From assembly GCA_030324005.1 (NCBI GenBank), contig JARDVH010000169.1, positions 24,336,284-24,400,283 of the forward strand: a stretch of 64,000 nt of DNA. The letters run 5' to 3'. The DNA is from Negaprion brevirostris. Its lineage: Eukaryota. Shown piece by piece: positions 21,231 to 63,572 of this stretch. The stretch's first letter is position 1, and the number at the start of each line of letters is the position of its first letter. Under the pieces are notes generated by a model. The model worked only from the letters and a program-made list of their open reading frames with translations. It was not told the DNA's origin and did no database searches. Position numbers and translations under genes: made by a program.

Positions 21231-21360
21231 CCACAAGTTGTTAAGCCTTACATATTTAAAAGGAAGCAGTATTTAATAAAAATTCATCTTAAAGCACCAA
21301 TCAAACATCAAGGCAGCAAAGATGCATAATTCTCTCGCACCAGCTGAATTGCTTTACTTA

Positions 21361-21474
<114 letters not shown>

Positions 21475-36241: not shown

Positions 36242-36316
36242 CCCATTCAGACTACTTTGACTGTAAGTATAACCGCTCCCAGCAAAACTGCTGTTCTGTC
36301 CATTAAACTGCTCCGT
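36242..36316 (-). CDS. ZMIZ2: ZMIZ exon G (75 nt): TEQFNGQNSSFAGSGYTYSQSSLNG
   Basis: Read by hand. Acceptor caacag, donor gtaagt. EQFNGQ motif; 137-nt intron separates it from exon F. Confidence 0.92.
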
Positions 36317-36453
36317 CTGTTGAAGTTAAGGGGAGGGGAGGATGTGGAAAAACAAAAGAATGGCAGCAGTCAATTCAACTCCTTGAGGTAAGAGTCAATT
36401 CTGATCAACCACCGAAATATACCAAATATAAATGTGCAAGCTGTTGCATTTAC

Positions 36454-36636
36454 CTTGTAGTACTGAGCCATGTTGACTGGAGGTGGGTGGTACTGGCCAG
36501 TGTTCTGTTGGCCTGGCATCCTCTGACCAGGGTAACTGGGCGATGTGATGGGCCTTTGGGGGTTCCCTGTTGGATACTGGCCAGGCTGATTGGCAAACTG
36601 GCTGCTTGGTCCATACTGCTGCGCTCCATAACTTGG
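36454..36636 (-). CDS. ZMIZ2: ZMIZ exon F (183 nt): [10 protein letters not shown]...VNMAQYYK
   Basis: Within ORF 36370..36642. Acceptor ttgcag, donor gtaaat, phase 0/0. Confidence 0.94.
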
Positions 36637-37116
36637 CTGCAAAATACAAATCTTCTTATAGTTTTCATGACTGTAAAGTCAGCATTGATGAGCAACAAGC
36701 TATTTTAAGTCACACTGAAGAAAGCCAACAATAGCCGCTTATAATGAGGCGAGTGTTTCGATACTGACTGCCTAGTGCGAACTGTCAGTATGGCTTGTGA
36801 ACTCTGAAACTTAGTGGAGTACGCGATGACCGAAAGGAAGCAATTTTTTTTATTCTTCCAAAAGGTGTAGGAGCATTTATTTCCCAATCTTAACTGGCCT
36901 CAAGAAGGTGGTGGTGAGCCATGTTTTCAAATTGCTGCAGTCCTTGTGGACCTAGATTGCTGTTCGCGAGGGATTAAAACCCAGCGACAATGGAGGAATG
37001 GCAATCTATTTCCAAGNNNNNNNNNNNNNNNNNNNNNNNNNNNNNNNNNNNNNNNNNNNNNNNNNNNNNNNNNNNNNNNNNNNNNNNNNNNNNNNNNNNN
37101 NNNNNNNNNNNNNNNN

Positions 37117-37200
37117 GAGGGAGCTTTACTCTGTATCTAACCCCGTGCTGTACCTGTCCTGGGAGTGTTTGATGGGGACAGTGTAGAGGGAGCGTTACTC
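37117..37200 (+). repeat. Approximately 70-bp shark tandem-repeat unit beside a gap
   Basis: gagggagctttactctgtatctaacccc...gacagtgta is followed by a restart gagggagcgttactc. Confidence 0.7.
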
Positions 37201-37699
37201 AGATTTCACTGCTTATGTTGCACAACAAATTCATCAAGAAACTTAAAATGTTGTGTTCTGATAATTCTTAATTATCTGGAATGTTCCATTTATTTATTTC
37301 CATTTGAACATAAATCTCTGTCTGGTTTAAAGGGAGACACAGATTTGAAGTGGATATTGAATCACTAGTTTGGACTCTGTAACAGGGTAAAATACATTCA
37401 CTAAAAGGCTGCTAACATTTATTTCCCTCTAACGCCTCAGTGCACGAAAGAACTGACTAATTCTGTGGATATTTGACGTTTGTTAACAATGAGTTTGAGC
37501 ACAGCGAAAGGCTTCTTATCCCCTCAAATATTCAGTGTACTGATAAATATCGATCCATCACAATCTACAGTGACATTTATTGCAGATGGTTGGGAGCTTG
37601 TTCCCGGTGGATGGGGTGAGGATTGATTCTCCTGACCCACTGCACCTGTCTGAAAGAGGAGAAAATGAGGTGAAACATACAGAGTGTAACTAAGTATTT

Positions 37700-37800
37700 A
37701 CAGTAAGAAGTCTCAGAACATCAGGTTAAAGTCCAACAGATTTATTTGGTAGCACAAGCTACTAGCTTCCGGAGTGCTTCTCCTTCATCAGATGAGTGGG
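37700..37800 (-). mobile_element. Penelope-type short repeat with a hammerhead-like core
   Basis: Minus strand reads ctgatgaaggagaagcactccggaagc...gttggactttaacctg; same family as 42555 and 43917. Confidence 0.6.
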
Positions 37801-38954
37801 ATTTCAGTTCACAAACTGTTTTGAAGCCAGCATGGTGTGTGGCTTGGAGGGGAACTTGCAGGTGCTGGTGTTCCCATTTGTCAGCTGCTCTTGTCTTTCT
37901 GCATGATAGAAATTGTAGATCTGCAAGGTGCAGCTGAATGGGGCCTGGGTGACTTACTGTAGCGCATCTTATAGATGCTACACATTGCTGCCAATGTGTG
38001 ATGTTAGAGGGAGTGAAAATGAAAGATGATGAATAGGGTGCAGATGATGAAACAGACTGCTTTGTCCTGGATGACACTGAGCTTCTTGAGTGTTGCTGAA
38101 GCTGCACTCATCCAAGCAAGTGGAGAGTGTTCCATCACACTCCTGACTTGTGCCTTGTAGATGTTGACTTTGGGGAATTTGGAGGTGAGTTTTCCCAGGC
38201 TCTGACCTGCTCTTTTAGCTACAGTATTTATAGGGCAAGTCAAATTCAGTTTCTGGTCAATGGTAACCTCCCATGATGTAGATGGTGGGGGATTCAGCAA
38301 TTGTAATACCATTGAATGTCAAGGGACAGCAGTTAGATTCTCTCTTGCTGGAGACTGTCATTACCTCGCACTCGTGTGACGCAAATGTTACTTGCTACTC
38401 ATCAACCCAAGCCTGAATATTGTTGAAGGTTTATTGTACATGGGCATGGACTGCTTCAGTGTGGGGTGGGGGGGAAACAGGAGACAAGAAATGAATAAGT
38501 TCAAATGGAGGGGAGTGATGATGAAGAGGAAAAACAGGATTGTTTAAAACATGTACTCAAAGGCATATTTATGGATCATTTCAATGATTGAAAAGGTCAC
38601 AGTAAATGATGCATGCAATGTTGAGCATTAATAAACACATTCAATTTTAATTCATCTATTAGAGATGTTTTGAAGTTCTGCATCACTAGTGCACAATGTT
38701 AATTGTCCATTAATAAGTGTTTAAATGTATTCAGGTGGTGGGCATTAACTGGGGAATCAACTGTGTTCCTATAAATAGGAAAAGACTGACAATTGTTGTT
38801 GTTGAGTCTTGAGACACATGTTTATAACACATGGCTCTAAATTAATGTTTATACGGTATGTAAAGATTAGGCTCCAGTTCTGTCCTTCACCACCTGGCTT
38901 TCTGGAAATAGAAATGCTTGTCGCTAATCAGGTATGTACCTCGGTTTCACTTAC

Positions 38955-39233
38955 CTCGCCGGGATAAGGCCTTTTCACTCCCTGCATGGGCATTGGCTGT
39001 GATGATCTTGGGCCTGGGTACCCCTGCTGGCTCACCCTCTGGCTGTGGGATGCAAACACTGGATTCATCCCTGGTGGTCTGGGCTGGTTGATGGGCATGG
39101 GTGGCCCACTCATGCTGGATGGAGTCATTCCACTGCCCATCCCTCCTGGGTTCATATTGCCTTGCATGTTCGATGGGCCCCGTCCACCCTGCTGGCTCAT
39201 AAACTGACTGTTGTAAGCCTGTGCTGGACCCAT
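38955..39233 (-). CDS. ZMIZ2: ZMIZ exon E (279 nt): [11 protein letters not shown]...[10 protein letters not shown]
   Basis: Within ORF 38928..39239. Acceptor ttgcag, donor gtaagt, phase 0/0. Confidence 0.95.
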
Positions 39234-39799
39234 CTGCAATAGAGAAGAAACAACATTTGAGATGGAAGCAGGAAATACTCGGATTGGAACTAAAATGCGG
39301 GGAAGTTAACACGTAGTGTGTGATGGCTTGTATCCTATGGAGTGGCTGCAGTAACTGTGGTACAAATCCAAATCACAGCACAGCCCAATGTGCGACATGC
39401 CCTTGGGGTGGGAGTATATTGTATCTGCCCATTTGAAGCCTTCCACAAACAGATGACACCAGAGGAATTGGAATAGAACGCACACCATGAGCAACATTAT
39501 ACATCAGTTTGATCATTTTCCTTTATTTACCACAGAACCATAAAAACCCTAGAGTGTAGAAAGAAGCCTTTCGGCCCATCGAGTCTGCACTGACTCTTCA
39601 NNNNNNNNNNNNNNNNNNNNNNNNNNNNNNNNNNNNNNNNNNNNNNNNNNNNNNNNNNNNNNNNNNNNNNNNNNNNNNNNNNNNNNNNNNNNNNNNNNNN
39701 NNNNNNNNNNNNNNNNNNNNNNNNNNNNNNNNNNNNNNNNNNNNNNNNNNNNNNNNNNNNNNNNNNNNNNNNNNNCATCAACAATATATAAGAGGATGG

Positions 39800-40595
39800 T
39801 TAATATGGTGGTTATAAAATCAGACTTGTAATGCAGAGGCCTGGAATAACAAACTGGAGATGTGAGTTTCAATCCCACTACAACAGTTGAGGAATTAAAT
39901 GAATCAGAAATAAAAAGCTAGTATTAGTAATGGTGACCCAGGAAAAACCCACTGGGTTCAATAATGCTCTTAGAGAGCAAGGTCTGCTCGCCTGGCCTGG
40001 TCTATATGTGATTCCATGCCCGCAATATGAAATTGTTTAGCAAGCTGCTCATTTGTAGGTATATTCCCAGCACCTTTCCAGGAGCAATTAGACTGTACAA
40101 TTAGTTTAAAGTTTATTCATCAATGTCACAAGTAGGCTTACATTAACGTTGCAATGAAGTTACTTTGAAAATCCCCTAGTCACCACACTCCGGCACCCGT
40201 TCGGGTACACTGAGGGAGACTTTCGTATGGCTAATGCACCTAACCAGCACGTCTTTCGGACTGTGGGAGGAAATCGGAGCACCTGGAGGAAACTCACGTA
40301 GACATAGGGAGAACGTGCAGGCTCCGCAGACAGTGACCCAAGCTGGGAATCGAACCCGGGTCCCTGGCGCTGTGAGACAGCAGTGCTAACCCACTGTGTG
40401 GCCGTGCCCCCGGGAATCGAACCGGGGTCCCTGGTGCTGTGAAGCAGTAGTGCTAACCCACTGTGTCACCGTGCCCCTGGGAATCGAACCCGGGTCCCTG
40501 GCGCTGTGAAGCAGTAGTGCTAACCACTGTGCCACCATGCTGCATCCTCCCGCCCTGCCATTAGAGCGCACATCCTGTGAATGAATAAATAAAAC
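39800..40595. mobile_element. Family-B SINE (+) interrupted by an HE1/V-SINE (-, about 40105-40543) with a triplicated head
   Basis: The host tail is split around the insert, and the insert has three 67-bp tRNA-head repeats. Confidence 0.8.
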
Positions 40596-40862
40596 CTATT
40601 CCTCTATTCCTGTTTCCCTCATTTAGCCTCTACTTGAATGCATCCAAGCTATTTGCCTTATGTAATAACTTGTCTTTGTGTGAAGACATCTCCCTTGAAG
40701 TGACTACAATACAAGGGGGTTGACTAAAGAACCTGAGATGTCAATGCAAGTTCTTTCTTTCAAAGTGCCAGTAAACTGCTATAGTGGCACATTGCAATAC
40801 TACGACTGTTAAGACACTCAACTAATGGATCCACGAATGCTGGCCAAGAGCTGGTTTCTTAC

Positions 40863-41061
40863 CGGGCCATACTGGTTCATCTCCTGGTTCTGTTTCTCTT
40901 GCAGGGCAGCCACTGTGGCAGTGGCAGTTGCTGTTGCTGTTGCTGCGGCAGCTGCAACTGCTGCCGCTGCTGCTGCGGCGGCTGGCTGGGTAAAATCCGT
41001 TGGTGGCCTGCTGTGCGGAGGAATGCCCATGGAGCCAGGAGCATTGGGACCACCAGGGTAA
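40863..41061 (-). CDS. ZMIZ2: ZMIZ exon D (199 nt), alanine/threonine-rich motif: [16 protein letters not shown]...[40 protein letters not shown]
   Basis: Overlaps ORF 40818..41030. Acceptor ttccag, donor gtaaga. Confidence 0.96.
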
Positions 41062-41182
41062 CTGGAAGAGAAACAACATACAGTTGGGCATCATCTCTCT
41101 CAATAGCAGGTAAAAAATAAGCAGAACTCAAGTCATCAGACACAGATATTATTTCACTTCTCTCTGTAGGTTCAAAGTGATA

Positions 41183-41470
41183 ATCATAGAATCCAAAAGT
41201 GCAGGAGACCATTCGGCCCTTCGAGTCTGCACTGACCACGATCCCAGCCAGTCCCTATCCCCACAACCCCCATGCATTTACTTTAGTTAATCCCTCTGAC
41301 ACAAAGTGGCAACTTAGCATGGCCAGTCCACCTAGCCCGCACATCTTTGAACTTTAGGAGGAAATCCACGCAGACCCGGGGAGAACATGCAGACTCCGCA
41401 CAGACAATGACGCAAGCCAGGAATTGAACCTGGCGATGCAAGGCAGCAGCACTAACCGCTGTGCCATCGC
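41183..41470 (-). mobile_element. HE1/V-SINE, CR1-type tail
   Basis: Head, V-domain and tail recognisable by similarity to the other copies in the window. Confidence 0.85.
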
Positions 41471-42211
41471 TCCACAACACTAAACTGTACGAGCATTGTT
41501 AGACAGTAATAATGTTGGGGGGTGCACCCTGCCATGCACAAAGTGAAAAGGCAGAGGTTAATGCTTGAAATTCCCCCATATGTGAGGAGGTAGTGAATGT
41601 AGATCTGCGCATTCTTGGAAGGAGGGTGAGGAATGCACACTTTTCAGTGCCTCACAGTGAAGGAGTTGCTTCCTTAGCCACAGAATGGCACGTTGCCCAC
41701 CAGGGAGGGAGAGCAGAGAAGGTTGTCTTTAAAGAACTAAATCGGGTCCTGAACATCTACAGTGGAAGCAAGGAGTGAAGGTTTTGGAGTTTTTAAAGTG
41801 AAGGTAGGAGAAGGACCAGGTTGGACCAGGGACACACCTGGCACACAATGCCAGTCAGGCCAATGTCAAGTGGTCTGGGAAACACCCACTTGTTATTAGA
41901 AGCTCACCCAGTTAGCTGTACAATAAAGCGGATGAGGCATTGAGCCTGACCTGGATATTTTCAACCAACACCCCCAAATAAAAACATATTAGCCTCCCAA
42001 AAAAGTGAAACAGCGGTGGCGGGTCACATGAAAATTGTACCAGCTGGAATGTTCAGAAATATAAGTACAAATCCCCTCACTGTCACTGATTGAATTATTT
42101 TCAGCCATCTCCACATGCTCCCATTGTTCAAGTGACCATTTATTTCTGCTGGTTTGGTCTTGTGTGTGCTCCCCCAGAATCGTGCTGAGTCACCAACAGT
42201 GTGGGCTTTAC

Positions 42212-42432
42212 CTGCTCCCAAAGTTGCCACTTCCAGGGTAGTTTGGTCGCCCGTACATGCCCTGCTGCATGTATGCTTGGTTGGAACCACCCTTGCCCGC
42301 TGAGAACTGCTGCTGCTGACTGGCAAACTGAGGCGAGTTGATTCCAGGATTGTTTGCTGACATCCCAGAGCCCATTGGGTTGCCCCCAGGAGTCATGGGG
42401 TTACTGGCATTTGCCATTGGATTTCCCAGCAC
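42212..42432 (-). CDS. ZMIZ2: ZMIZ exon C (221 nt): [13 protein letters not shown]...YPGSGNFGS
   Basis: Within ORF 42208..42597. Acceptor aagcag, donor gtaaag. Confidence 0.94.
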
Positions 42433-42529
42433 CTGCTTACAGGATGAGAAAGTAACTGTATTAAAAGGCACTGGAAAGAGAGACAGTAAAGCATTCAGTT
42501 CTATGTAAGAGTGGTAACATGGATGAAGA

Positions 42530-42930
42530 ATGGTGGCATAATGGTAATTGCACTGGACGAAGGGGCAAACCCCAAAAGCTTGTGAGTTTACTATCAAATA
42601 AATTGGTTGGACTTAAACCTGGTGTTGTCAGACCTCTTACTGTGTGTAGCCCAGTCCAACGCCGGCATCTCCACACCATAATCCAGAAGCCCAGGTGAAT
42701 GCTCTGGGGATATGGGTTCAAATCCCACTACGGCAACCATTGGAATTTAAATTCAATCAATCAAGCTTGAACTGACCATGGCAGCTATCATCAACTGATG
42801 TAAAAAAAAAACTCAAATCAGTTTGGAGATGTCCTTTAGGGAAAGAAATCTGCCATCCTCATCTGATTTGGCCTAAATGTGACTACTACAGTACTTTGGG
42901 TTTGCCTCTGGATGATGTCCTCTTGATCTG
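42530..42930 (+). mobile_element. Family-B SINE with a nested Penelope-type short element (about 42555-42678)
   Basis: The SINE head cactggac...taatccag is split by the insert. Confidence 0.7.
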
Positions 42931-43339
42931 CACTGAAATGTTTCAGGACACACATGTGGACTGACCAATGAGCCATTGGCAGGCCATCGGACCTCGCAGC
43001 TGCTCCCAGCCTGTCCATGCCAAATATCCACAGGCTTGTTGTTCCAGCGCAGGAGTGCACTCTGTGAGCTCTGAAACTGAATCTCCACTGCTAACCTGGC
43101 TGAGATGAACAAACTCAATCCAGAGGGAGGTCAAGCCCCCAGCCTTCCTGTTTTACACGACCTGCTTATAGCAGTTGCGCCACTGGTTGGTTTTCAGCTG
43201 CTCTGGTGTTCTAGGCTGCCAGAACTTGATGCAACCACATTGCAAACAATTGTAATAAGTGACTTTTTAACTAGTTTAGTTAATTATTTGCCATGAAGAT
43301 TGCCTCAGTTTATGGTAAATTTACAGCACACACACATTA

Positions 43340-43519
<180 letters not shown>

Positions 43520-47179: not shown

Positions 47180-47333
47180 CTGTGGGGTCCAGGAGGGAGT
47201 GTTGGTTTCATGGAGTTCATAGGGTTCATTGGTGGCTGCATGGGCAGTTTACCAGGGGTGTCGTTCTGACGGCTCTTCTGGTGACGGAGTAACAGGAGTC
47301 GCCCTAAATCCTCGCACCACGATGACAGGAGAG
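47180..47333 (-). CDS. ZMIZ2: ZMIZ exon A (154 nt): [51 protein letters not shown]
   Basis: Not in the ORF track; read by hand. Acceptor tgcacag, donor gttagt, phase 1 to 2. Matches the end of the ZMIZ1 N-terminal domain followed by a ZMIZ2-like MNxMNxMKPxLPPxPH. Confidence 0.93.
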
Positions 47334-47589
47334 CTGTGCAGAGAGAAAAGAACCATCATAAGAACCTTACCCTTCCAAAAAGAACTGGTGATGACAAGTT
47401 TGAAAGTTTTTGCACATTAAGGTCTTTAATTGTGAAGATCGGCTGGGATTATATTTGATGGTTGTCAGGAGATAGCTACTGCTCTATCAATCACGCGCAC
47501 ACACATAGGTGCAATCACAATGACACAGTCACACACTAAAACATACAACCATGCACAGATCCAGAATCAACCAAACACACACACACACC

Positions 47590-47890
47590 TATCATAGAAA
47601 CCTATCACAATGCAGAAAGAGGCCATTCAGCCCTTGGAGTCTCCATGACTCTTTGACAGAGTATCTTATCCAGGCCCTTTTCCCCAACCCTATTCCTGAA
47701 GTCCCACATATTTATCCCCTTTACCCCCCAACCTACAGATCTTGGGACACTAAAGGGCAGTTTAACATGGCCAATCCACCCAAGCTGCACATCTGTGGGA
47801 GGAAATCAAAGCTCCTGGAGGAAACCCACACAGACATGGGGAGAATGTGCAAACTCCACAGACAGTCACCCAAGGCTGCAATTGAACTAG
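47590..47890 (-). mobile_element. HE1/V-SINE, CR1-type tail
   Basis: Similarity to the other V-SINE copies in the window. Confidence 0.85.
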
Positions 47891-48431
47891 AGACTTGCCC
47901 GCCTAAATCAAAGGTCATCATTTGTGAAACAGACAAAATGGAGGCTTCCTCATTGGGACTGTTTGCTCCTGCATCAACAACCAGACAGCACACAATATTC
48001 ACCATCCCTGTGCAGCTGACCTGCCCGCATCAAACTGTCAGATTACATGTAATGGTTATTTTACATAAAAATATGTCTGTGGAACAATGGTGGTAATTTA
48101 CACTCATCCAGGGCACACTTCCAATAATCCTGCTAAGCCTGTTCAAAATTTCTGACGCAAAGCTGAAGGATTTATTGATGGCTTGAGTGGCTTTGCTCTG
48201 TACTTTTCTGGCTTTTTATTTATTCCAACACATTCAACACAAGTGCCTAACAAGAAGGATCAGAGACACAGAGCATTTAACTAAAGTGCTAATGTCTTCA
48301 GAGGGAGCTCAGCTACAGAATCACCTGCTTGGGCTCCTTCCTCAGGTAGATTTGTCTCACTGCAGTTTGCAGGGATGTCCTCAGTATTGGACAACCTCAG
48401 CATTGTCTTTATTACAGCTGTCCTCGAATAA

Positions 48432-48702
48432 ATTTAAGTTTACTTATTCAGGCTTACATTAAGACTGCGACGAAGTTACTGTGAAAGTCCCCTAGTCCTC
48501 AGTCTGGCGCCTGTTCGGGTACACTGAGGGAGAAATTAGCAGTGCCAATGCATCTAACCTGCATGTCTTTCAGACTGTGGGATGGTGCGGGAGCACCCTG
48601 AGAAAACCCATGAAGAGACAGGGAGAACATGCAAACTCTACAGTGACCCAAGCCGCATATCGAACCCAATCCCTGGCAGCAGTGTTACGCATTGCACCAC
48701 TG
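48432..48702 (-). mobile_element. V-SINE with the alternative tail
   Basis: V-domain plus a tail similar to 53505-53610. Confidence 0.8.
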
Positions 48703-49369
48703 TTACAAATGAATATGATGTTATGATATTCATTAAGAAGTAACTAGCTGCTATGGGGATGTACATGTGGAGTGCCCCATTGTACTGCTGCACTGCAGTC
48801 ATGCGATGACAGTTTGTCAACTACTTGGAGAAATGCAAGATATACACTCAGCAAAGCCTTAATGTCTGATTCTTTCGAACTTATAGGAAACAGGACACAT
48901 GACATATCGGAGGACGGGGGGGTGGGTGGGAGAAGAGGAGAGAGAGAGACTGAGAGGTGGTACTTTAGATTGCGCAGTGGAATGGTCAGTGCTGCTTTCG
49001 GTTAAGTGAAAGAAGGGCTTTTGTACATCTGACGTTTTGTCACATCTCCAGCTTCACTGGGCACCTCAAGAGCCGAGTGAAGGCAGTGCCAGTCCATTTG
49101 GCATAAGTGGGTGGCCTCACAAGCCCTTGCGCCAGGGAGAGACTGGATTTCCACCAGGGATTCTGGCCCACAATCCAGTGATGCCTGCTGCCGGAAAGCA
49201 TAGCCGTGGATCTGTCAGGTGAGAGAGGTGGGATCAGCCCCTACCAAATCAGCCTCGCAAGACTATTTCTTGCCCACCCCGAAATATCCAGGTTCACAAG
49301 AAGGTGCGACAAAGGATGACATTGGGAATGAGAGGTTCTAACCATCAGGAAAAACTTGAACAGCATTGT

Positions 49370-49460
49370 TTCTCTAGAGAAGTGGAGGCAAAGGGGTGAC
49401 CTGAAAGATAGAGGTCTTTGAAAGTAAGAAGGTTTCTGATAGCAGAAACGCAAACAAGAG

Positions 49461-49494
<34 letters not shown>

Positions 49495-49822
49495 TGGGGG
49501 GGAGGCAGACAGATACCAAGTTTAGGGATCATCAACCTAAGATAGCCACTAATATATCCAATATGTAATTCAGGAGAAATCTCTTTTACAGAGAGTAGTT
49601 AGAATGTAGCACTCTCTATCTCCAGGAGTAGCTAAAGCAAAGAGCATAGATATATTTAAGGGGAAGGTAGACAAACAAGAAGGAGAAACAACTAGAGGGA
49701 GAAACAACTAGAGGGTTACTTGGTGGGTTTCGATGGGTAAAACAGCCATTGTGGTATATAAGCATTAGCGTGGGCCAGTTGGGCCAAATGGCCTGTTTTG
49801 CTGCTATACATTGTGTATGATT
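49370..49822 (+). mobile_element. CR1 3' end containing a (GT)n microsatellite (49463-49492)
   Basis: CR1 3' motifs and tail gggccaaatggcctgtt. Confidence 0.75.
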
Positions 49823-50359
49823 CTTACACTCAGCTCAATGCTCTTGAATGTACTTTAGTAAGGCGCTGCATGACTGTTGAACTCTCAGGTACTGAGCAGT
49901 AGCTCCCCAGCATGGCTGTACTGCTCTTGGACAGAAAATGGAGGTATCGCGGACATCGCTGGAAGGGGTTTCATAGAATCATCCAGTGCTAAAGAGGTGA
50001 AATTCTTAAAAGAAAAAAAAATCAGGTTTCCTATTTGAAATGTTGCCTTCATTCATTCATTCTTTGTAGTAAAACCAGGGCTACAGTTTTGAAACATTTT
50101 TCGAACCTGTTTAGATGGCCCTCATGGTTGATATTTAATTTTGAAGTTGCATTCAATCTTCCATTGTGTCTTCCTCTGGGGAATCAAGTGGTGCCGGTCC
50201 TGTGGATAGCCACAAGGTGGCAGTCCCAGCAAACCTTTAAACCTAAAAGGAGCCTCACTTACAGTGGGAGGGATTTACCAATAAGCATTCGATCACATCA
50301 GATGGATCACTACTACGAATGTGTTGACTGCGAGCAGCCCTTGTCTTTTTTTCTCTTAC

Positions 50360-50900
50360 CCCACCTGATACTATTACTGCACTGCAGATGTCATTGCTGT
50401 CGAGCACAGCCGCTTTGTATTGAGCGCAGTGCTGTGAATGCTACTTAGGGGAACAAAGTGCACATTGAGACAACGGGCAGCCATGTCAAAACATACACAC
50501 ACTGCAGCTTCCACAGCTCAGAGGCCCCTAGACTGCTCTCTGTACGGTATAAACCGGCCATTTTGAGAGAGAGAGAGAGAGAAAAACGATCTGTGTGTGC
50601 GCGCACACACAAACGATGTGTCTGCTTGAGGTTGCTGGTGACAGGGCAAGCAGTATATCCTGCCCCGGCCATTTCTCTCCCTTTTTTTTGAAGGAAAGGA
50701 AACCTCTTGTTTTCAGACTCTGTAGATCCCGTGCAATACTTGCACTGGGCTGGAACTGGCTGTCGTCGAAAATGGAATTAGAGTCAGAAAATTAAACATT
50801 CCCTGAGAGGCTAATTTAACTGTATCTCCCCCCCTCCACCCAGTCCCACACGCTGCCCCCCGCCCCTCCACCCCCACAACCATCTGTAAAACTAGCTCAC
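50360..50900 (-). promoter_or_regulatory. Candidate internal promoter and non-coding alternative first exon
   Basis: No recognised transposon and locally CpG-enriched. Two YY1-like CCGGCCATTT motifs, a GC box (ccccgcccc, about 50857-50866), and a strong donor GG|GTAAGA ending at 50360. Confidence 0.5.
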
Positions 50901-51350
50901 ACACGCATTGTGCTCTTAAGCTGAAACGGCAATAAATTATTCATCTTCACTTGTAATTTTCTCCCCGTCATGGGCTGCCAGCAGCAGAACGAATTGACAT
51001 TCACCGAGAAACAGAGTGTGTGCAAACTGGCTCCCTGCTAAACAGGCAGACTGTTGAAACAAAATGGCTCACTTGCGACTTAAAAGGCTAAACCTCAGTC
51101 TGTGTCACAAAAACACACGCGGTTTATCGTACATGTATTTTCGAATTATATTTTTTACAAACATCCACAATAAAGAACTGATATAAATATTAATCAATTG
51201 TTTGTTTAAGTTTATACCACAGATAAAACTCAATTTAAAGACTNNNNNNNNNNNNNNNNNNNNNNNNNNNNNNNNNNNNNNNNNNNNNNNNNNNNNNNNN
51301 NNNNNNNNNNNNNNNNNNNNNNNNNNNNNNNNNNNNNNNNNNNNNNNNNN

Positions 51351-52250
51351 CTCATGGCTGACCTGATTATAATCTCAACTCCACATTCCTGCCTACCCCC
51401 AGATAACCTTTCACCCCCTTGTTAATCAAGAATCTATCCAGCTCCACCTTAATAATATTCAAAGACTCTGCTTCCACTGCCTTTTGAGGGTTCCAGAGAC
51501 TCACACCCCTCAAAGAAAAAAGTTCTCACCTCTGTCTTAAATGGATGACCCCTTAATTTAAAATCTAGTTTTAGATTTTCCCACTGGAGGAAACATCCTC
51601 TCCACATCCACCCTGTCAATACCCCTTAAGATCTACAAAGGTTTTGATTAAGTCACTTCTTACTCCACTAAACTCTACTGGATACAAACCTAACCTCTCC
51701 CAACTTTCCTCATAAGACAACCTGCCCATTCCTGGTATTAGTCTAGTAAACCTTCTCTGAACTGTTTTAATGCAGTTACGTGTTTCCTTAAGGGTGACAC
51801 AGTGGTTAGCGCAGCTGCCTCACAGTGCCAGAGACCTGAATTCAATTCCCAGCTTGGGTCACTGTCTGTGCAGAGTATGCAAGTTCTCCCCGTATCTGTG
51901 AGAGTTTCCTCCGGGTGCTCCATTTTCCTCCCACAGTCCAAAGATGTGCAGGTTAGAAGGATTGGCCATGATAAATTGCCCATTAGTGTCAGGGGATTAG
52001 CAGGAGTAAATATATGGGGTTATAGGGTCTGGTGGGTGGAGGGAAGCCGTTGTTGGTACAGGTTTGATGGGCCGAATGGTCTCCTTCTGCACTATAGAGA
52101 TTCTATGATTCTAAATAAGGAGACCAATACTGTATGCAATACTCCAGATGCCGTCTCTCCAATGCCCTGTACTGCTTAAGCACATTTTTGTAATCAATTC
52201 CCCTCACAATAACTGTTGACGTTCTTTAGCTTGCCTAATTACTTGTACCA
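51351..52250 (-). mobile_element. CR1 fragment (-) split by an HE1/V-SINE (+, about 51792-52111)
   Basis: CR1 sequence ttcctta|aataaggagacc rejoins across the SINE. Confidence 0.85.
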
Positions 52251-52669
52251 GACATACAAGCCAGTGCAATCAGGGCAGGAATAACAAGATCAGTGTTCAA
52301 GTGTCAGATCAAGCCCAATATCAGGTGCGATGGCTTCTCTTGTTAACTTGGATCTTGTTTGTCTGTTTTGTGGGAACCATGAATTGGATTCAATTTGATT
52401 TTTTTTTCGAGCAGGCAAGAAGCAGGATAACGGCTTGCCTGGTCTGCTCCACGCTTTGGCTTTGTAACGTTAAGAATGGAGGAAAAATTAAAAATTCAAC
52501 TTCCATCTTTCTCACAAGTCTATTCTTTCTGCTTCTCACTCTCTCTTCACTTGCTGCAAAATCTTGAACTCATTTCTAGGTAGGGAGTTCAGAACTGGAG
52601 TCACTAGTTTGTAAGTGGGTCCAAAGTGAATTCATAAATAATGTCTGCAGTGTTTTAAAGGGGAGATAG

Positions 52670-52978
52670 AGCTGGTGGTGTATTGGCAATGTTGCTGGAC
52701 TAGTAATCCAGAAATTTATGCAAATTCTCTGGAATGTGGGTTCAAATCCCACCATGGCAATTATGGTGGTGCTGTAGTTTTCTATGTTCTATGTGGAATT
52801 TGAATTAAATTAATAAATCTGGAATATGAAGCTCATGTTGGAAATGGTACCCGTGACAACCATCATTGTTCTAAAAGCCCATTTAATTCACTAATATCTT
52901 TTAAGGCAGGAAATCTATTGTCCTTACCTAGTCTGGCCTTCATGTGACTCACGTCAATGCCCTCTGAAATGGCTAGAA
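52670..52978 (+). mobile_element. Family-B tRNA-derived SINE
   Basis: ctggactagtaatccag...ggttcaaatcccacc head and family-B body. Confidence 0.75.
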
Positions 52979-53311
52979 ACTTTTGAATGCTGTCAGGTTC
53001 AAATTACAGAACCGTGGCTTAGTAAATGGTTGAATGGCCTACGCCTGTTCTATATTCATTCAGCCAACCTAGCCTCTGCTTTACAGAGGCCTCATCCCAA
53101 CCATCCTCATGTAACCCATTCANNNNNNNNNNNNNNNNNNNNNNNNNNNNNNNNNNNNNNNNNNNNNNNNNNNNNNNNNNNNNNNNNNNNNNNNNNNNNN
53201 NNNNNNNNNNNNNNNNNNNNNNCTGTTCTATATTCATTCAGCCAACCTAGCCTCTGCTTTACAGAGGCCTCATCCCAACCATCTTCATGTAACCCATTCA
53301 GGAAAAGCACA

Positions 53312-53618
53312 GGACGGCACAGTGGTTAGCACTGCTGCCTCACAGCACCAGGGACCCAGGTTCGATTCTTGGCCTCCGGTCACTGTCCGTGTGGAGTTTG
53401 CATGTTCTCCCTGTGTCTGTACGGGTTTCCTCTGGGTGCGCTGGTTTCCTTCCACAGTCCAAAAGACGTGTTGGTTAGGTGGTTTGGCTGTGCTAAAAAT
53501 TTAGCGTACCCGAACAGGCGTCGGAGTGTGGCGACACAGGGATTTTCACAGTAACTTCACCGTAATGTTAATGTAAGCCTACTTGTGACACTAATAAATA
53601 AACTTTAAATTAAACTTT
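53312..53618 (+). mobile_element. V-SINE with the alternative tail
   Basis: A box (cagtggttagc), B box (ggttcgattc), V-domain, and tail taccggaacagg-like ...gtaagcctacttgtgacactaataaataaac. Confidence 0.88.
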
Positions 53619-55674
53619 ATGCTGGGGACTAGTTGAAGCTCAAAAGATGGAGATCTGTAGATTTTCTTTTGTCCTGTAAGGGTATTCAGAGATGTGGAGC
53701 TAAGGTCTCAATAAGAGAATAGGTCTCAAAGTTTAGGTCAGCCATGATCTAATTAAAAGTCTCAAGATTTCTGAAGGGCCTACACTTGTTCTTTTGTACT
53801 GGGGAGAAAGGAAAACAGAAAAGGGACAGGAAATAGGGATTAGAAAGACGGAGCTGTCATGATAAACAAATCAGCAGAGGTTCAATAATCATCCTATAAT
53901 TGAAGGCAGTTTGGTCTGATTGAAAGTAGGGATAGTAAAATGGGTTTTAATATGGTATATGGGCTTTGTAATGGGTCACACTGTGGGTAGAACTGTAAGT
54001 CACACTATCTGCCGCGCGATGAGTTGTACCGAAGGCTGCTATTGTTAGACAGTAAGTGCCAAGGTTCACCTCATTGGGTGAGATAGAACCATAGAAAATT
54101 ACAACTCAGAAACAGGCCTTTTGGCCCTTCTTGTCTGTGCCGAACCATTTTTTGCCTAGTCCCACTGACCTGCACTTGAACNNNNNNNNNNNNNNNNNNN
54201 NNNNNNNNNNNNNNNNNNNNNNNNNNNNNNNNNNNNNNNNNNNNNNNNNNNNNNNNNNNNNNNNNNNNNNNNNNNNNNNNNCTTGTCTGTGCCGAACCAT
54301 TTTTTGCCTAGTCCCACTGACCTGCACTTGGACCATATCCCTCCACACCCCTCTCATCTGTGAACCCGTCCAATTTTTTCTTAAATATTAAAAGTGACCC
54401 TGCATTTACCACTTTATGTGGAAGATATACTTGTGAAATTGCACTTTTACTATCAGGACTTGAGAGGAGTGAGGCAAGGGTAAGAGAAATGGAGAGACAG
54501 AAAATAGGTGACAATATCACAAGGGTTTGCTCAAAGCTTGTGAGTGGTACGGACAATTACGCAATGAACATGATTGTGTCCAGTATACATTTTTCCTCTC
54601 TCTCAGAAGCAATTTTGTACCTCCTCAATTTATTCTCTCTGGATCTCCATCTCTCACAAAAGCACAAGCTGGCTGGCCCTTGGCATGTCTCAGTGAGTCG
54701 TCGCCAAATGTGAAATTGTACAGAGAAACTTCTGCTTTCCGCTTGGTGCCCCAACCGCATCACTGCTCCTCACCATTTTAAGGCATGACGTTGGGTATCA
54801 TAGAAACAAACTCACACTCTGTCCTGCCTGGGGCAATACCATTGTAGCTTGGAATAAAATCACTGTCGGATAAGTCAAGGTGGAAGTAACTAGTGCAAAC
54901 TTCCAGTGGCGCAAGAAGTGAACCAAATCAACATGAGTAACATCAACTTTCGAGAATGGATTTGTTTCATACAGGATGACAGGGCAAGTTCTGGAAATGT
55001 TTCACCCTACAGCATTCACTAGATGCTGCTGCTAATGAAGTGTTGAAATACTCTCCAGACATTGCTACTAAATGTTTAGTCTCAAGCAGAGCAGACAGCA
55101 TTATCGTTCTGGGATGAGGTGGCACGTGGGAGCACTTCCGAACAACTTCAAGATATGTCAGTGTCTGTGCTACATCTGCGCATCAACAAACAGCTCTATA
55201 TATTGTGCTGCCTTCTGGAACATCCCCAGAATCATGTCAGAACCAAGAGAAAATACTTTTTTTCGAATAAAGTAACAAGCAGTTCCAAGCACTGCTTTGT
55301 GTCTGATGCTTCAGGCCCCTTTACAGTTCCTCAGTAAAAAGAAATCAAGCTTGATATTAAATTCAGGCGTTAATTGTGAAATGTAATGAGGTAAGACGTA
55401 GCAAGGATTCAAACATAAATCCCAAATGAAAACTTGCTTCTGGGGATGTACACCCTGGTACTTAGTTACCCTGGATGGTGAAGCCAGCATAAGTGAACCA
55501 CTTCAACTTTGAGTCTTTCTATCCAGTAGTCATGACAGCACTTGATTTTCATGAATCCCAATTCTCCTTTCCTCCATCTTTTTGACATCCACATTCCTCT
55601 TAAAACAAATCAACCAATTCTTCATGTGATTGTCAAAGATGTCTACCACATCCACACAACCATCTGGAATGGAA

Positions 55675-55916
55675 TAAAAGCAAAACCGTGGATGCTGGAA
55701 TCTGAAACAAAAACAGAAAATGCTGGAAAATCGCAGCAGGTCTGACAGTATCTGCGAAGAGTGAATAGGGCCAACGTTTCAAGTCGGGATAGCCCTTCGA
55801 AGGGTCTTCCAGACTCGAAACATTGGCTCTATTCAGGGGGTCATCCAGACTCGAAATGTTGGCTCTATTCTCTCTCCAGAGATGCTGTCAGACCTGCTGC
55901 AATTTTCCAGCATTTT
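55675..55916. mobile_element. Palindromic (inverted-repeat) Penelope-type element
   Basis: Arms of about 70 bp (55717-55785 and about 55848-55916) are reverse complements; internal 33-bp direct duplication. Confidence 0.7.
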
Positions 55917-56874
55917 GAATGGAAGTTCTGTCTCCTCATTGCTGCCTAATCATGAAACAAAATCCCCAAAAAAACAGGACAGTGAACCAGAGATGGCGGA
56001 TGATGTCAACTGGGAGAACAACAGGGCTGCGTTGTTACAGCGCCTTTTACCATCTCAGAATATCCACATTCACAACCAATGGAGCACTTACTTTTGAAGT
56101 GTGGCCACTGTTGTGATGTGGTAACCTTTACGCACAGAGCAAGCATTCACCGACAGCAAAGTGTCAATGCTTTAGTGTTGATTAATGCTTGGTGAAAGCT
56201 TCCCAAGACACTGGGGCCAGGATTTTACAGCCCCTCCTGACCAGTCGAATATTAAGAGTCCCACTGTGGTAAATGACAATCTAAATGGCAGGCTTCAAAT
56301 CACTCCCTTGCTCTTAAATCATGGGACTATATATGCTATCTATGTATTCGCATAAATTGAAGACTGCAAAACCAATGCAGCTGAGAAATGATCCATGCCG
56401 AGCCATGGACCTCATCATACCTTTCCACTGAAACCACAATAGCAATAAGCCATTCTCTACAAATCACAACTCATCAGCTGGTCTCACCACCTATTGTTGA
56501 TATAGATGCTGTTCCAAGATCGTTGCTCTGCGCCTATCAGAGAATTCTGATCTTAGCCACGCTTTTGAAAGAACAGAGGTGCAAGAGAGCAAGACGTCAA
56601 AAGGATTCATCTTGCACCAAGACCTGGAGGCTCCAAAACCATTCTGTGAACTGACACTTTGCAAGAGCCAGTCTTGCCCAGACAATGAACCAATTTATAG
56701 AAACCGCAGCAGGTACAAACCACACCCGAGTCACGAGCTGTATGATTAGGCTTAGCTTTACATACCTACACAGGTTCACTCCTGTCATGAGCTGCCCACT
56801 CTACTAACTACATCCTCAGTGGCTTCATTCTTTCTGCTACATGTTGCAGGTATTACACTACCCAAGTACCCGAA

Positions 56875-57060
56875 CCAGGACAAGACTTACTCAGTTAATG
56901 GTAGGGCATTGGGGCGAGTTAGAGGACAAAAGAGATCCAGGGGAACAAGTTGAAAGTGGAGTCACAGGGTGGTGAAGCATGCTTGGTTTCATTGGTCAGA
57001 ACATTGAATACAGAAGTTGGGACATCTTATTGAAGTTATACAAGACATTGGTAAGGCCAT
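56875..57060 (+). mobile_element. CR1 RT fragment
   Basis: cattgaatacagaagttgggacatcttattgaagttatacaagacattggtaaggcca encodes IEYRSWDILLKLYKTLVRP. Confidence 0.75.
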
Positions 57061-57459
57061 AGGTCGAACACTTTAGGGTCATCACCAGCTGTGCAAAATC
57101 TGCCTGCTGGGCCCCAGCCCAATTTCAAGCTGCCAAAGCAGCTATAGACACTGGACTGGCTTTTACTATTGGGGAGTTATGTCCCTTCTTTGACTCCTCA
57201 AGTTTAAATATGCATCGAAAGTACTACTATTTGGAGTATGGGGACTTGTTCTAGCAATTAAGCATGGGCGGCAGCGACATGAAGACTGGATTAGGAGCCA
57301 GGTAGAGATGGAATTCCAGAAGGACAAAACCCAATTACTACAGTTAATATCAACTAACTGTTTCTTCAACTCCTCCAGTCCCTATAGACAAGCAGCCCCA
57401 ATAGTGGATTTCCTTTTCTTTGCCAAAAACCATCTGAACCTTCATAAGATGATCAGGTG

Positions 57460-57790
57460 AGATGGTGGGATGGTAGTAATATCACTGGACTAGTAATCCA
57501 AAGACCCAGGCTGACGCTCTGGGGACAAGGGGGTCAAATCCCATCACGGCAGCTGGTGGAATTGAAATTCAATTAATAAAATTTGGAATACAAAGCAACT
57601 ATCAAGATTGTTTTGTGATTGTTTTTGCTGGTTCACTGATGGTGTTCAGGGAAGATAATCTGCCATCCATACCTGGTCTGGCTGACATGTGACTCCAGGC
57701 CCACAGGAAAGTTTGAGGGTAATTAGGAATGGGCAGCAAAGACTGGCCTTGCCGGCAATGCCCACATCCTATGGAGAAATGTTTTAAAAA
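57460..57790 (+). mobile_element. Family-B tRNA-derived SINE, near full length
   Basis: Head, body and gggtaattaggaatgggc tail all present. Confidence 0.8.
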
Positions 57791-60589
57791 TTCTTTATCA
57801 GAATAGGTTTATGAAAGCCACATAACTTGTGATTTATGATGCTCCATAATAAATCTGATCTGCTTATGGTGAGTGATGGAACGACAACTCAAAAATCATC
57901 CTTAATTTGAGAAGGAAGCTACATCTCAATTTGTTTCATCTCCCTGTAAATGGGAACTGTATACAATCACTCTGCTTTTGTTACCTGTGTAACAAGACTT
58001 CAGGATGTTCATTAGCTGTAAAGCGCTGTGGGATTATAACAAATCGTATTTATTAAAGTGCCTTAAATGGAAAGAATACACCCTGAAGCATTTCACAGCA
58101 GTATAAGGACATTGATAAGGAACTAGATAAACACAAGTTACTTCTCAACAAAAACAAGATCTCACCAATTTGCAGGTGAAGTAAAGCCTCCTAAACTGTG
58201 GATGTAAAGCATTATTGTCTTGGCAACAGCTGTGTTCGAGACAAACTGCTGCTCAAAATATATCCCAACTTCAATTTACTTTCAATGTTGGCAACGGGAG
58301 GGGCATTACTCCTCAGTGTCTTTTACAACCACATTATTATTCAGCATCTAGTAGTTCAAGGTGCCTTCAACAGAAAATAGCACCTCACACAAGCACAAAG
58401 ACACAAACTGGATAAAAACATGGTCCTGTTCTCTTCCAAAAAAGCTGCAGGAAAATGCAAGGCCAGCTTTTAGAACAACGAGTCATGGCAAATACTCAAT
58501 GATTAGAATGAATGATTAAACCCTGCTCTGTTTCCGAGGAAAGATTTCCAAAAGGGCAAAATCCATACCCTGATGGACTTCCCGGTTAGGAGACCTGAAT
58601 GCAATTCTGTTGTCAGCCGGTATCAAAAGGTTCACCTTCCTCACAGGACGGTTCGAAACTCAGGAGATCAGCCAAAACTTCTGATCGAGTTCAAGCGTTC
58701 TTGAAAGCACTGATTGGGAAACAAAGCACGGCCTGGGTTACATTAGAAAAAAATGCACATTCGATTGCATTGGCCCAATTCCAAATTAAAAGGGCCATGA
58801 GGATGGAATTGGATGGCGGGGGAGGGGAGGGAATACGTGGGTGGCTGACAGAACCTAAACTTAGGCTGCAGTTTCAAATTCCAATCATTGCCAGAGGATT
58901 GGAGACACTGAGGAATGTCACTTAAGAGTACCAACTAAAAACAGAAGACCAGCAAAATAAAATCCTACAAAGAATAACAGGAAGTGTTGGGTCGTGTGCA
59001 CAGTGTCAAAAATGGATTTTGCTTGCAGCAATCTTTCTTTTGGAGAAGTGTTGGGGAAAATGCTCCTTACTTGTAACATTCTCACTCATTTGAGTTTCAG
59101 ATGTCAGCCAACCTCAAAGAGAACATCAGAAGTGTCCGGAGATGGGCTCTAATTGCTTTTGGACAAATGAGCATACCTTACATTTCCCAGGGGCAAAAGC
59201 CAGGATCCAAGCGTCAAATGCCATGGCAAATTAGTCTAAAGTTTGTGAGGATTGGACAATGTTCAGCCTCCCAGCCTCAGTGTACAATACTGATAAATTG
59301 TCTGTTTGCCTCAACTGCCAGGTCAACTTTAGCACAGCGGTGATATTTAGCTACTGGCCATTTGTACATCATTAACTTTGGAGTCTGAGAAGTTAGAACA
59401 CTTTAGCTGAATCACATTTTGTGGATGGTGACTGGATAATCCCCAAGATGGCTGACAAAGCAGCACAACCGAAAAAGAACGCTGAAAAGATGTTTTAAAA
59501 GTGAAATCAGCTATACAAGTGACTTTCCTCCCTCCTTCCCACGATGGTCTAATTTAAAAAGGCACCAGCCTTGTTGCCAAATTAGGAGTTTCACAAACAA
59601 ACCCAGCACCAAGCTTCTTAGATGCATGTGCAGATATCTCGTGACATTGCTCACCAGTCAGAAGCTACGTGGTTTTATAATAAGTGAAGTGCTGTGCCCT
59701 GAAATGGTTGGGGCACAGTTCAACTACCATGCTGCTGTATACAATCCAGCCTTTCTCTTCAGTGCCCCAAAGTCTCCATGCTGCAAGTATGGCACACCCA
59801 GAGGACAATAAGTTAATGCTTTTGGTTGGCAGGTGCTTGCAAATTCTCTGGCTCCCAATCTCAAAGAAAACAGCATGAAGTAACTGCCCAACTTTCAACT
59901 CTGCTGGCACTTTGAAATCTGGTGTCTGGAGTGTGACAGATGCCAGACAGAAAACGCACTCCCCTCCTGAGATGCTGCTGAACAGGTCAGAAGAATGGGT
60001 CACTCGACATAGGCAGGAATATTATTTCAATTGAAACAAAGGTATATTATTGAGCAGGCGTTTATAGATAACAAAATCTGACAATACTAATTATTAAGCA
60101 GTTTCAACGAAAATTTTATTGCAGTTTAAGCTGGAAATTGGATCCTTGATATGGTTTCGAAATGGTCCCTTGCTCTAATAATCTGGAGACATCCTAAGCG
60201 ATGGCCTTAATTTTTAAAGATGTGTCTTCAAACGTGACAGCAGAAATTTGCATTTAACAGCGCGTGACATCTGAAGTGTGACCGACAGGAAATGCATACG
60301 TGAAGTGTAATATTAAAGATAGATTCACTATATTTATCCCCTGTTTAGGGCCTCACTGCACTGTTGGCAAATGGCCATTAAAATGTAAATTAAGCATCAC
60401 TAAACATACTGCAGGCCCTTACGGATCAGAAAGTCCCAGGTTCTGTTCCCAGTCTAACTACAGCCAAGGTAGCTGCGGGGCAACATTTCTGCTCCGGAAA
60501 AATGGCCTCGACTTAATCATCCACTTGTTTGTGTGCCAGGTCAGGACAGCAGTAAAGTTCAGCCATCGAGCTTCCGACAGTCATTAAAT

Positions 60590-62525
60590 CCTGCCGCCAA
60601 TTACTGTCGTTCGTATCTACCTCTGGTTTCTGCCATCCCCTCTCCAGCTCGCCTTGTCCATGAGATCCATCCTCTGCTCCCTCAAAACTAACTTTCCTAC
60701 TAAACTGATCAGCCAATCTCCCCACCTGATCCCCATGTTAGCTCAACTCTTAATGGTTCTCCCTCTACAGATGTAATCTCTCTCTTCTTTCAATCTGCCA
60801 TCATCACCTGTCTCCTCCAAAAACCCCAACATCCTTGCAAATTACTGTCCCATCCCATGGTGACATTTTGGCACAGTGGATAGCACTGCTGCTTCACAGT
60901 GCCAGGGACCTGGATTTGATTCCTGGCTTGGGTCGCTGTCTGTGTGGAATTTGCACATTCTCCCCGTGTCTGCATGGGTCTCCTCTGGATGTTTCCTCCC
61001 ACAGTCCAAACATGTGCGGGTTAGATGGATTGGCCTTGCTAAATTGATCCTTAGTCTCAGGGAAACTAGCTAGGGTCAATGCATGGGGTTATGGGGATGG
61101 GGCCTAGGTGAGATTGTGATCGGTGCAGACTTGATGGGCCAAACGGTCTCCTTCTGCACTGTAGGATTCTAGATTCTAACCTCCCATTCCTCTCCAAAGT
61201 CCTTGGATAAGTTGCTACCTCCCAAATCCATGTCCATGTCCTGGAACTCTTGTTGTGAGAATCCTTCCAATCAGGTTTCTAACATGCCACAGCACCAAGA
61301 TGGCTCTCATCAAAGTCACAAATGGCCTCAAACATGACTGTGACAAAGGTAAATGACCCTTCCTCATTTTATGTGACCTGTCTACACTTTGACATGGTTG
61401 ACCACACCATCCTCCTCCAATGCCTCATAACTATGGTCCAGTCAGGTGGGGCTGCTCTCACCTATCTGTGTAATCAGAGCCAGAGCATTGGCTTTTCTTC
61501 CTGCTCCCACACCATTCCCACTGGTGTTCCCCAGGGATCTATTCTTCCCCACCCCATCCTCCCATTCTGCATCTATGCCTCGGTGACATGGTCTGAAAGC
61601 ACAGCAGTATTATTCACAGGTGCATCGATGACTCCTAGCTTTATCTCAGCACCACCATTCCACTCCTCCATTGTTACTAAATTATTGAACAGCTTGTCTG
61701 ACATCCAATACTGGATGAGCAGAAATATCCTTCAATTTAATGTTGGGTAGACAGAAGCCATTTTCTTTTGTCCCCACTATAAGTGGTGTTTGCATAGGCT
61801 CCAATTCCATCCCTCTCCCTGGGGGCTGTTTGAGGCTGAATGAGTCTCTTCACTACTTTGATGTCATTTTTTTATCCCAAGCTAAACTTCTGCCCACTAA
61901 CCTGCACAATAACTAAGCGCGCTTAATTCCAGCCCAGTAACATTCTCCAACTTTACATCACCTTAGCTTGTCTGTTACTGCCATCCTCGTTCATGCCTGT
62001 AACCCCTAGACTTGGCTATTTAAAAGCACTCATTGCAGTGTCCCACATTCCACCCTCCTCTGACTTGAGGTTATCTGTGTCTCATGTCGCACTAAGTCTT
62101 ACTCACTCATCAGCTCTGTACTTGCCAACCTACACCAGCTTCTGCTTAAGCACCAATTCAATTCCAAGATTATTGTCCTTATTTTCAAATCCCTACATGA
62201 CGTCATCCCTCGACCTCTCAGTAATCTCCTCCAGCCCCACAACCCCCCCAGATATTGGTGCTTGTCTAATTCTGGTCTTTTGACCACTCTCAATTTTAAT
62301 CACTCCATCATTGGTTACCATGTCATCAGCTGCCTGGGCTCTACATCTGTCCACCTCTTTGCCTCTATTTCTTTCTTTGTCTCCTAAAACCTCTTTCTTT
62401 TGACCAGGCATTTGACCATTTGCTCCAGGTTCGTTGTGACATTTTGCTTTGTAAAGTTCCTGAGAAGTGCTTTGGGATTTTTCCATATTAAAGCCCCTAT
62501 ATAAATACAATGGTTCTTGTTGTTT
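60590..62525 (+). mobile_element. Degenerate L2 LINE (RT region and 3' end) with a nested HE1/V-SINE (about 60865-61176)
   Basis: ORF 61322..61750 has FDMVDHTILLQ, GVPQGSIL and WMSRNILQFN RT motifs. The L2 sequence rejoins across the SINE. Confidence 0.85.
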
Positions 62526-62764
62526 TCATCATTCACCGTGAACAGAATACTTGGGTGAAACACAGGAAACTGAATGAGTCACTGCAGTGAGGAGAGAAGT
62601 GGACGAAAGGAAGGAAGAAGTGAAGAAGGGTTCCGGTTGGTTGAATTGATGATTTTCTCTCCATGGAACCCTCTGTTCTCTGTTTTCTGCCCTCCCTCTG
62701 CCCCTCAAACAATATAACAATGTGAGGACTCTTTATTCCAGACACTTCAGACATGTTTAGTTGC

Positions 62765-63305
62765 ATTTTTTAAATTCATTCGTGGAACATGGGCGTCGCT
62801 GGCTGGGCAGCATTTATTACCCATCCCTAGTTACCCTTGAAACTGACTGGTATTTCAAAGGGCAATTGAGAGTCAACCACATTACTGTGGATCTGGAGTC
62901 ACATGTAAACCACACCAGATAAAGATGGCAGATTTCCTTCCCTAGAAGGAACATTAGTGAACCCCATGGGTTTTTCCAACAATTGACAATTTCGTGGTCA
63001 TCAGTAGATTCTTAATTCCAGATTTTTTTTTAGTGACTTCAAATTCCACCATCTACCGTGGTGGGATTCGAATCCAGGTCCCCAGAACATTAGATGAGTT
63101 TCTGGATTAATAGTCTAGCAATAAGACCAGTAGGCCATCACAACCCCTAATCCTGTTGCACCCCGGCTGAGACTAGCTTTCATTTCCAGATTTAATTGAA
63201 AATAAATTCCACCAGCAGCCATAGTGATCTTTGAACCAGTCATCCTAGTTTAGCCTGAGCCTCAGGATTACGGGTTCAATGGCACTTACACCATACCACT
63301 GTCTT
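62765..63305 (-). mobile_element. Family-B SINEs (one near full length, one 5' fragment)
   Basis: Reverse-complement similarity to 57460-57790. Confidence 0.8.
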
Positions 63306-63379
63306 CCCCTGAGGTTCCATCCTATTGCCTCATCAGTAATTCTCAATAAAATCATACCTCAACTTAGTTAATACTGTTT

Positions 63380-63572
63380 TAAAGTTTATTTATTATTGTC
63401 ACAAGTAGGCTTACATTAACGCTGCAATGAAGTTATTGTGAAAATCTCTGAGTCGCTCCAGCGCCTGTTCGGGTACACTGAGGGAGAATTTAGATGGCCA
63501 ATTCACCTAACCTGCACATCTTTGGAGTGGGAAGAAACCACAGCACTTGGAGGAAACCCACGCAGACATGGT
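63380..63572 (-). mobile_element. V-SINE 3' part with the alternative tail
   Basis: Similar to 40105-40310 and 48432-48620. Confidence 0.8.

Follow-up and report, generated by a model that had tools for sequence, protein, structure and literature searches.

Our analysis concerns a window of 64,000 nucleotides from Negaprion brevirostris (G000:C169:24336284-24400283). Within it lies an exon whose first part looks like the end of the ZMIZ1 N-terminal domain and whose second part looks like the start of human ZMIZ2. The original prediction was that the gene is a shark ZMIZ2 orthologue which has retained the ZMIZ1-type domain. The question is thus to which of the two paralogues the exon belongs and whether the domain has been kept on ZMIZ2 in sharks. 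We are confident that the exon is the ordinary exon 4 of ZMIZ1, and that another gene, on scaffold C167, is most likely ZMIZ2 with four N-domain exons and likely both a long and a short protein.

The exon is intact and in frame, as predicted, and both peptides are encoded by its 154 nt of open frame (Table 1). It is flanked by a pyrimidine-rich acceptor (...cacag) and a gttagt donor, with phase 1 at its start and phase 2 at its end. A comparison with the human ZMIZ1 N-domain structure 5AIZ places the exon's first 24 residues at the end of that domain (E 5.9e-8), which bears out the assignment of this part. Against shark ZMIZ1a proteins the exon scores 96%. The upstream TPR exons expected beyond position 64000 were found on C169: exons 1, 2 and 3 lie 138, 125 and 86.5 kb from exon 4, respectively, and exon 3 ends in phase 1, in which exon 4 begins (the exon 3-4 joint is taken from the gene model). 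Joined through GT-AG sites, these three exons and 18 exons of the window form a gene model of 21 exons and 1088 aa in one open frame, with Zmiz1_N, GBD-like and SP-RING domains together. In contigs assembled from four runs, presumed to be RNA (none is recorded as RNA), exon 4 is spliced to the downstream exons in 4/4 runs. Upstream of exon 4 the contigs extend by 154-720 letters, and three letters there fit both the end of the intron and the end of exon 3. Alternative splice sites are seen at two other exons. Exon 6 has a tandem acceptor (42435-42430; contigs at about 42432; a difference of one residue) and exon 8 has two donors (38955-38940, five residues apart; contigs use 38955), and the contigs favour the shorter form at both.

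Table 1. Positions of the window gene and of related features. Plain numbers are window positions; numbers after C169 or C167 are scaffold positions.
Feature	Position	Strand	Remarks
ZMIZ1 coding exons 1-3 (remainder of TPR-like domain), outside window	G000:C169:24521248-24521180, 24508572-24508459, 24470258-24470153	-	
ZMIZ1 intron 3 (86.5 kb), part within window	47334..64000	-	
ZMIZ1 exon 4: final helix of N-terminal TPR-like domain and linker with internal Met cluster	47180..47333	-	
Short tandem-like repeat, intron just 3' of exon 4	about 46750-46990	-	
ZMIZ1 exons 5-10	36242..43469	-	gene model; exons 5-9 joined within single contigs
ZMIZ1 exons 5, 6, 7	43469-43355, 42435-42212, 41061-40863	-	exon 7 with alanine-rich motif
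ZMIZ1 exons 8, 9, 10	39233-38940, 36636-36454, 36316-36242	-	
ZMIZ1 exons 11-14 including GBD-like domain PF25527, ZMIZ1-type residues	24086..32154	-	domain located via 98% identical P0001
ZMIZ1 exons 15-17, SP-RING/MIZ zinc finger	19820..21890	-	PF02891 E 5.4e-9
ZMIZ1 exons 18-21 (C-terminal region), TGA stop	9180..18101	-	gene model
Tandem spliced cyclophilin copies, at least four, outside window	G000:C169:24251384-24326058	-	just 3' of the window gene
ZCCHC24 C-terminal exon	G000:C169:23991261-23991365		same strand as shark ZMIZ1
C167 ZMIZ gene	C167:18796536-18894109	+	

The window protein shares 97.9% identity with Rhincodon ZMIZ1a, 93.3% with Callorhinchus ZMIZ1a and 85.3% with a primate ZMIZ1, compared with 64.2% for human ZMIZ2; in the N-domain 113 of 120 residues are those of the primate ZMIZ1. 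Among the best 120 of 189 protein matches to exon 4, all but one bird protein named ZMIZ2 are either called ZMIZ1 or carry no specific name (unnamed, hypothetical or generic). This bird protein, P0020, is probably misnamed in its source, since its core motifs and its exon 4 are of the ZMIZ1 type. We defined 34 diagnostic columns that are fixed differently between seven bony ZMIZ1 and six bony ZMIZ2 proteins. The window gene carries the ZMIZ1 state at 28 of them, the ZMIZ2 state at none and other states at six. Two trees were calculated, one with 43 rows by a quick mixture-model search and one under JTT with 25 rows, hand-picked for taxonomic spread, and 908 columns after removal of the N-domain and the ZMIZ2-like motif. 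In both the window gene falls inside the gnathostome ZMIZ1 clade (SH-aLRT 92 in the 43-row tree, 95.9/97 in the 25-row tree), against the predicted ZMIZ2 identity. In AU and SH constraint tests, with constrained trees from fast searches under a single model, a clade of the window gene with bony ZMIZ2 is rejected (AU p 3.7e-6). Moving the root so that shark ZMIZ1 falls on the side of ZMIZ2 is weakly rejected by AU (p 0.032) and not by SH.

The neighbouring genes are also those of the ZMIZ1 side. The next gene downstream is PPIF-like (PPIF 63.6-64.8 vs PPIA 56.1 bits), and the sole ZCCHC24 match is found about 350 kb downstream. In the human ZMIZ1 locus, PPIF and then ZCCHC24 presumably follow downstream. 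The ZCCHC24 exon is on the same strand as shark ZMIZ1 while we take the two genes to be on opposite strands in human, so a local inversion at ZCCHC24 is possible. The tandem cyclophilin copies, counted from four separate copies of one internal exon and with the nearest copy PPIF-like, are likely a local PPIF expansion. An RPS24-type match on C169 is weak and 10 Mb away, sharing the scaffold only. By the trees, the AU test, the diagnostic columns and the neighbours, the window gene is an ordinary shark ZMIZ1. It is known already, as such genes are annotated ZMIZ1a in sharks. Its protein would be expected to act like ZMIZ1, as an SP-RING co-activator whose N-domain binds NOTCH1.

What made this exon look like ZMIZ2 are three residues near its end, which had been taken as an insertion typical of ZMIZ2. 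It is correct that human ZMIZ2 begins with the motif in question (P0193) and that primate and other bony ZMIZ1 proteins are without the three residues. In the 25-row alignment, however, they are present in shark and chimaera ZMIZ1, including that of the whale shark, in ZMIZ2 and in hagfish. All three are missing only in the seven bony ZMIZ1 rows, and lungfish ZMIZ2 is without one of them. Because the residues are ancestral and common to hagfish and chimaera, they are not a ZMIZ2 marker. A separate deletion in bony ZMIZ1 would account for the ZMIZ2-like look of shark ZMIZ1. The idea that the window gene is a shark ZMIZ2 which has kept its N-domain would draw on these residues and on the broad ZMIZ2-side rooting, which is rejected at AU p 0.032 only. 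Against this stand the absence of any ZMIZ2-type column, the rejection of the direct clade, the residues in hagfish and chimaera, the PPIF-like and ZCCHC24 neighbours and a better candidate on C167, and we regard such an identity as almost certainly wrong. A different change in exon 4's surroundings is seen in the ray-finned-fish ZMIZ1 models P0064, P0107 and P0114, which have 12 additional residues, two of them cysteines, within the N-domain where exons 3 and 4 meet; this insert is not in the sharks or tetrapods of the alignment.

If the window gene were ZMIZ2, a separate ZMIZ1 was to be looked for in the same genome. A genome search with Pfam Zmiz1_N (PF18028) gives two loci over the cut-off, on C169 and C167, with two exons each (4/7 matches), and exon 4 likewise occurs at exactly two loci, the other one on C167 at 72%. 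A second paralogue thus exists, but it is the window copy that is ZMIZ1 and the C167 copy that groups with ZMIZ2. Exons 1-4 of the C167 gene (69, 114, 106 and 154 nt) have canonical splice sites and an open frame, and their lengths and phases equal those of the window gene. The model is partial, with 14 exons visible and the others presumably in N gaps.

Bony ZMIZ2 and the C167 group come out as sisters, with a support of 99 in the 43-row tree and of 98.7/99 in the 25-row tree without the N-domain. An origin of the C167 gene as a shark-specific ZMIZ1 duplicate is rejected (AU p 3.1e-6). A 55-aa core of a shark C167-type protein is 100% identical in the best 120 of 994 matches. Nearly all of these carry the name ZMIZ2, and birds and mammals are heavily represented. 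PF18028 is found in 3 of these 120, all elasmobranch, and N-domain motifs in none of the 117 new ones. Among the protein matches listed for C167-type queries there is no chimaera ZMIZ2. A cyclophilin gene lies 28-39 kb downstream on the same strand. It scores higher for PPIA (52.1 bits) than for PPIF (46.2 bits) over a single 43-aa exon whose best matches are not named PPIA, and we assign it as PPIA-like with moderate confidence, the reverse of the window locus. In human, PPIA is presumably directly downstream of ZMIZ2. The bird ZMIZ2 models P0135 and P0140 continue into a cyclophilin domain and are probably gene-model fusions with the downstream neighbour. For OGDH and PURB, which we assume to lie near ZMIZ2, the families PF00676 and PF04845 gave no match on C167 in this gap-rich assembly, and there are two PF00676 matches on small contigs.

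Several observations would fit a different origin, in which the C167 gene is a separate ancient ZMIZ1-like duplicate that survives in sharks and rays alone, while the true ZMIZ2 is absent or unassembled. All named members among the C167-type shark and ray matches listed are called 'ZMIZ1-like' by NCBI. Elasmobranch ZMIZ2 is overall 74% identical to primate ZMIZ1 and 67% to human ZMIZ2, and at the 34 columns it has 16 ZMIZ1 and 11 ZMIZ2 states. A clade of C167 with all ZMIZ1 is weakly rejected, at AU p 0.023 only and not by SH. The hagfish protein has 24 ZMIZ1 states, however, and the ZMIZ1-like states of elasmobranch ZMIZ2 are therefore read as slow evolution. The sister position to bony ZMIZ2 is obtained without any N-domain column, the core is that of proteins named ZMIZ2, the start motif of the short form is the same as in human and bichir ZMIZ2, and the downstream neighbour is PPIA-like. 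Such a duplicate would also demand reciprocal gene losses, and we consider it very improbable. The C167 gene is most likely the ZMIZ2 orthologue.

Two kinds of 5' end are observed for this shark ZMIZ2. In four runs the contigs depart from C167 exon 4 at or within a few letters of the splice sites. A single contig, which comes from run X16 (presumed to be RNA) and reaches about 29 letters into exon 4, continues upstream into a stretch that agrees with the end of C167 exon 3 in 29 of 30 letters (compared by eye). A different upstream sequence is joined to C167-type exon 4 in 4/4 runs, and the domain exon in 1/4. The first in-frame Met of C167-type exon 4 is the start Met of human, bichir and marsupial ZMIZ2, and database models of at least six genera include both the long form and a form starting at the exon 4 Met cluster. 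The shark ZMIZ1 models P0452 and P0460 likewise start inside exon 4, so that such forms may also occur outside ZMIZ2 or may in part result from faulty annotation. The alternative upstream exon was not found in the loci searched or in the genome; of the 29.5 kb of the C167 intron concerned, about 12.6 kb is N. Since this exon is not located in the assembly, an internal promoter is something that we infer.

Given that three of the four runs contain the alternative upstream exon only, exons 1-3 of this ZMIZ2 could be vestigial or rarely used, with the short protein as the functional one. Its N-domain has also drifted further, with 96/120 residues identical to primate ZMIZ1 compared with the 113/120 of the window gene. 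Vestigial exons are nevertheless improbable. The frames are open, the splice sites canonical and the exon lengths identical to those of the window gene, and a spliced exon 3-4 contig exists. C167-type models with the full N-domain are found in at least nine genera of sharks and rays (Mustelus, Heterodontus, Scyliorhinus, Cetorhinus, Heptranchias, Pristis, Narcine, Amblyraja and Rhinoraja; in the largest cluster, 15 of 45 members), and PF18028 scores 145-151 bits in 4/4 long elasmobranch ZMIZ2-type proteins scanned. The C167 domain retains Met4, Arg85 and Lys91, which are positions of patient missense variants according to PMC12170594. The N-domain is that through which ZMIZ1 binds NOTCH1, as described in PMC13687641, PMC12170594 and bioRxiv 10.1101/2021.05.14.444216. 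The long shark ZMIZ2 may share this binding.

The same Pfam domain is also present in 2/2 ZMIZ1, in hagfish and in 4/4 invertebrate proteins. It is found in 0/7 bony ZMIZ2 proteins, including those of lungfish and two bichirs; the loss in bony vertebrates is judged from database proteins. The N-terminal extensions of lungfish and three teleost ZMIZ2 proteins do not resemble the first part of exon 4 (shuffle p 0.45-0.91). A start at a Met inside exon 4, predicted for mammalian ZMIZ2, is supported for bony ZMIZ2, but the loss is not specific to mammals, because bichir and lungfish ZMIZ2 are already without the domain. Similarly, the proposal that both paralogues had the domain ancestrally and that sharks kept it on ZMIZ2 holds for the C167 paralogue outside the window and fails for the window gene.

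A single ancestral ZMIZ gene would have carried the N-domain, which we regard as ancestral because tunicate, crinoid, abalone, horseshoe crab and hagfish ZMIZ all have PF18028. In PMC2453138, a paper about block duplications in early vertebrates, the human ZIMP pair is placed on chromosomes 7 and 10. Such a duplication would have given two domain-bearing genes, ZMIZ1 next to PPIF and ZMIZ2 next to PPIA. Some ZMIZ2 transcripts would begin with an alternative upstream exon, probably under an internal promoter, that splices into exon 4, and the short protein would then begin at the exon 4 Met, as does human ZMIZ2. Sharks and rays would have retained both routes; the ancestor of bony vertebrates would have lost exons 1-3 once and kept the short form. 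We lean towards this history, in which bony ZMIZ2 is a short isoform that existed before and became fixed when exons 1-3 were lost once, and sharks and rays keep, via an alternative first exon, a short form together with a long form of the Notch-binding type. The mammalian rule that only ZMIZ1 has the domain would then go back to its loss in the bony-vertebrate line, and shark ZMIZ2 would be a second Notch co-activator.

The difference between mammalian ZMIZ1 and ZMIZ2 would accordingly be a loss from ZMIZ2 and not a gain by ZMIZ1, likely by way of an already existing isoform. Where shark and ray genes carry the label 'ZMIZ1-like', they are most likely ZMIZ2, and the long and short forms of shark ZMIZ2 would provide natural material for what the N-domain adds, namely NOTCH1 binding. 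No paper on shark ZMIZ2 was found in the open literature (subscription papers, supplements and curated gene trees were outside this search); PMC8389471 concerns transposon-driven truncations, not evolution. The case is a tidy one of divergence after genome duplication and is mainly of interest to specialists in ZMIZ and in vertebrate evolution.

Compared with known genes, the window gene is the same as vertebrate ZMIZ1 (Zimp10) in its domains PF18028, PF25527 and PF02891, its long 5' introns and its PPIF-like neighbour, and differs from bony ZMIZ1 in keeping the three ancestral residues of exon 4. Derived residues in the core, the motif at the start and the PPIA-like gene downstream link the C167 gene with bony ZMIZ2 (Zimp7), from which it differs by its four N-domain exons. 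The N-domain on the C167 gene is a variant feature and not grounds against ZMIZ2 orthology. PF18028 occurs together with the SP-RING core in 5/5 of the invertebrate (tunicate, crinoid, abalone, horseshoe crab) and hagfish ZMIZ proteins, which are pre-duplication or unplaced genes, the hagfish one being not firmly either paralogue.
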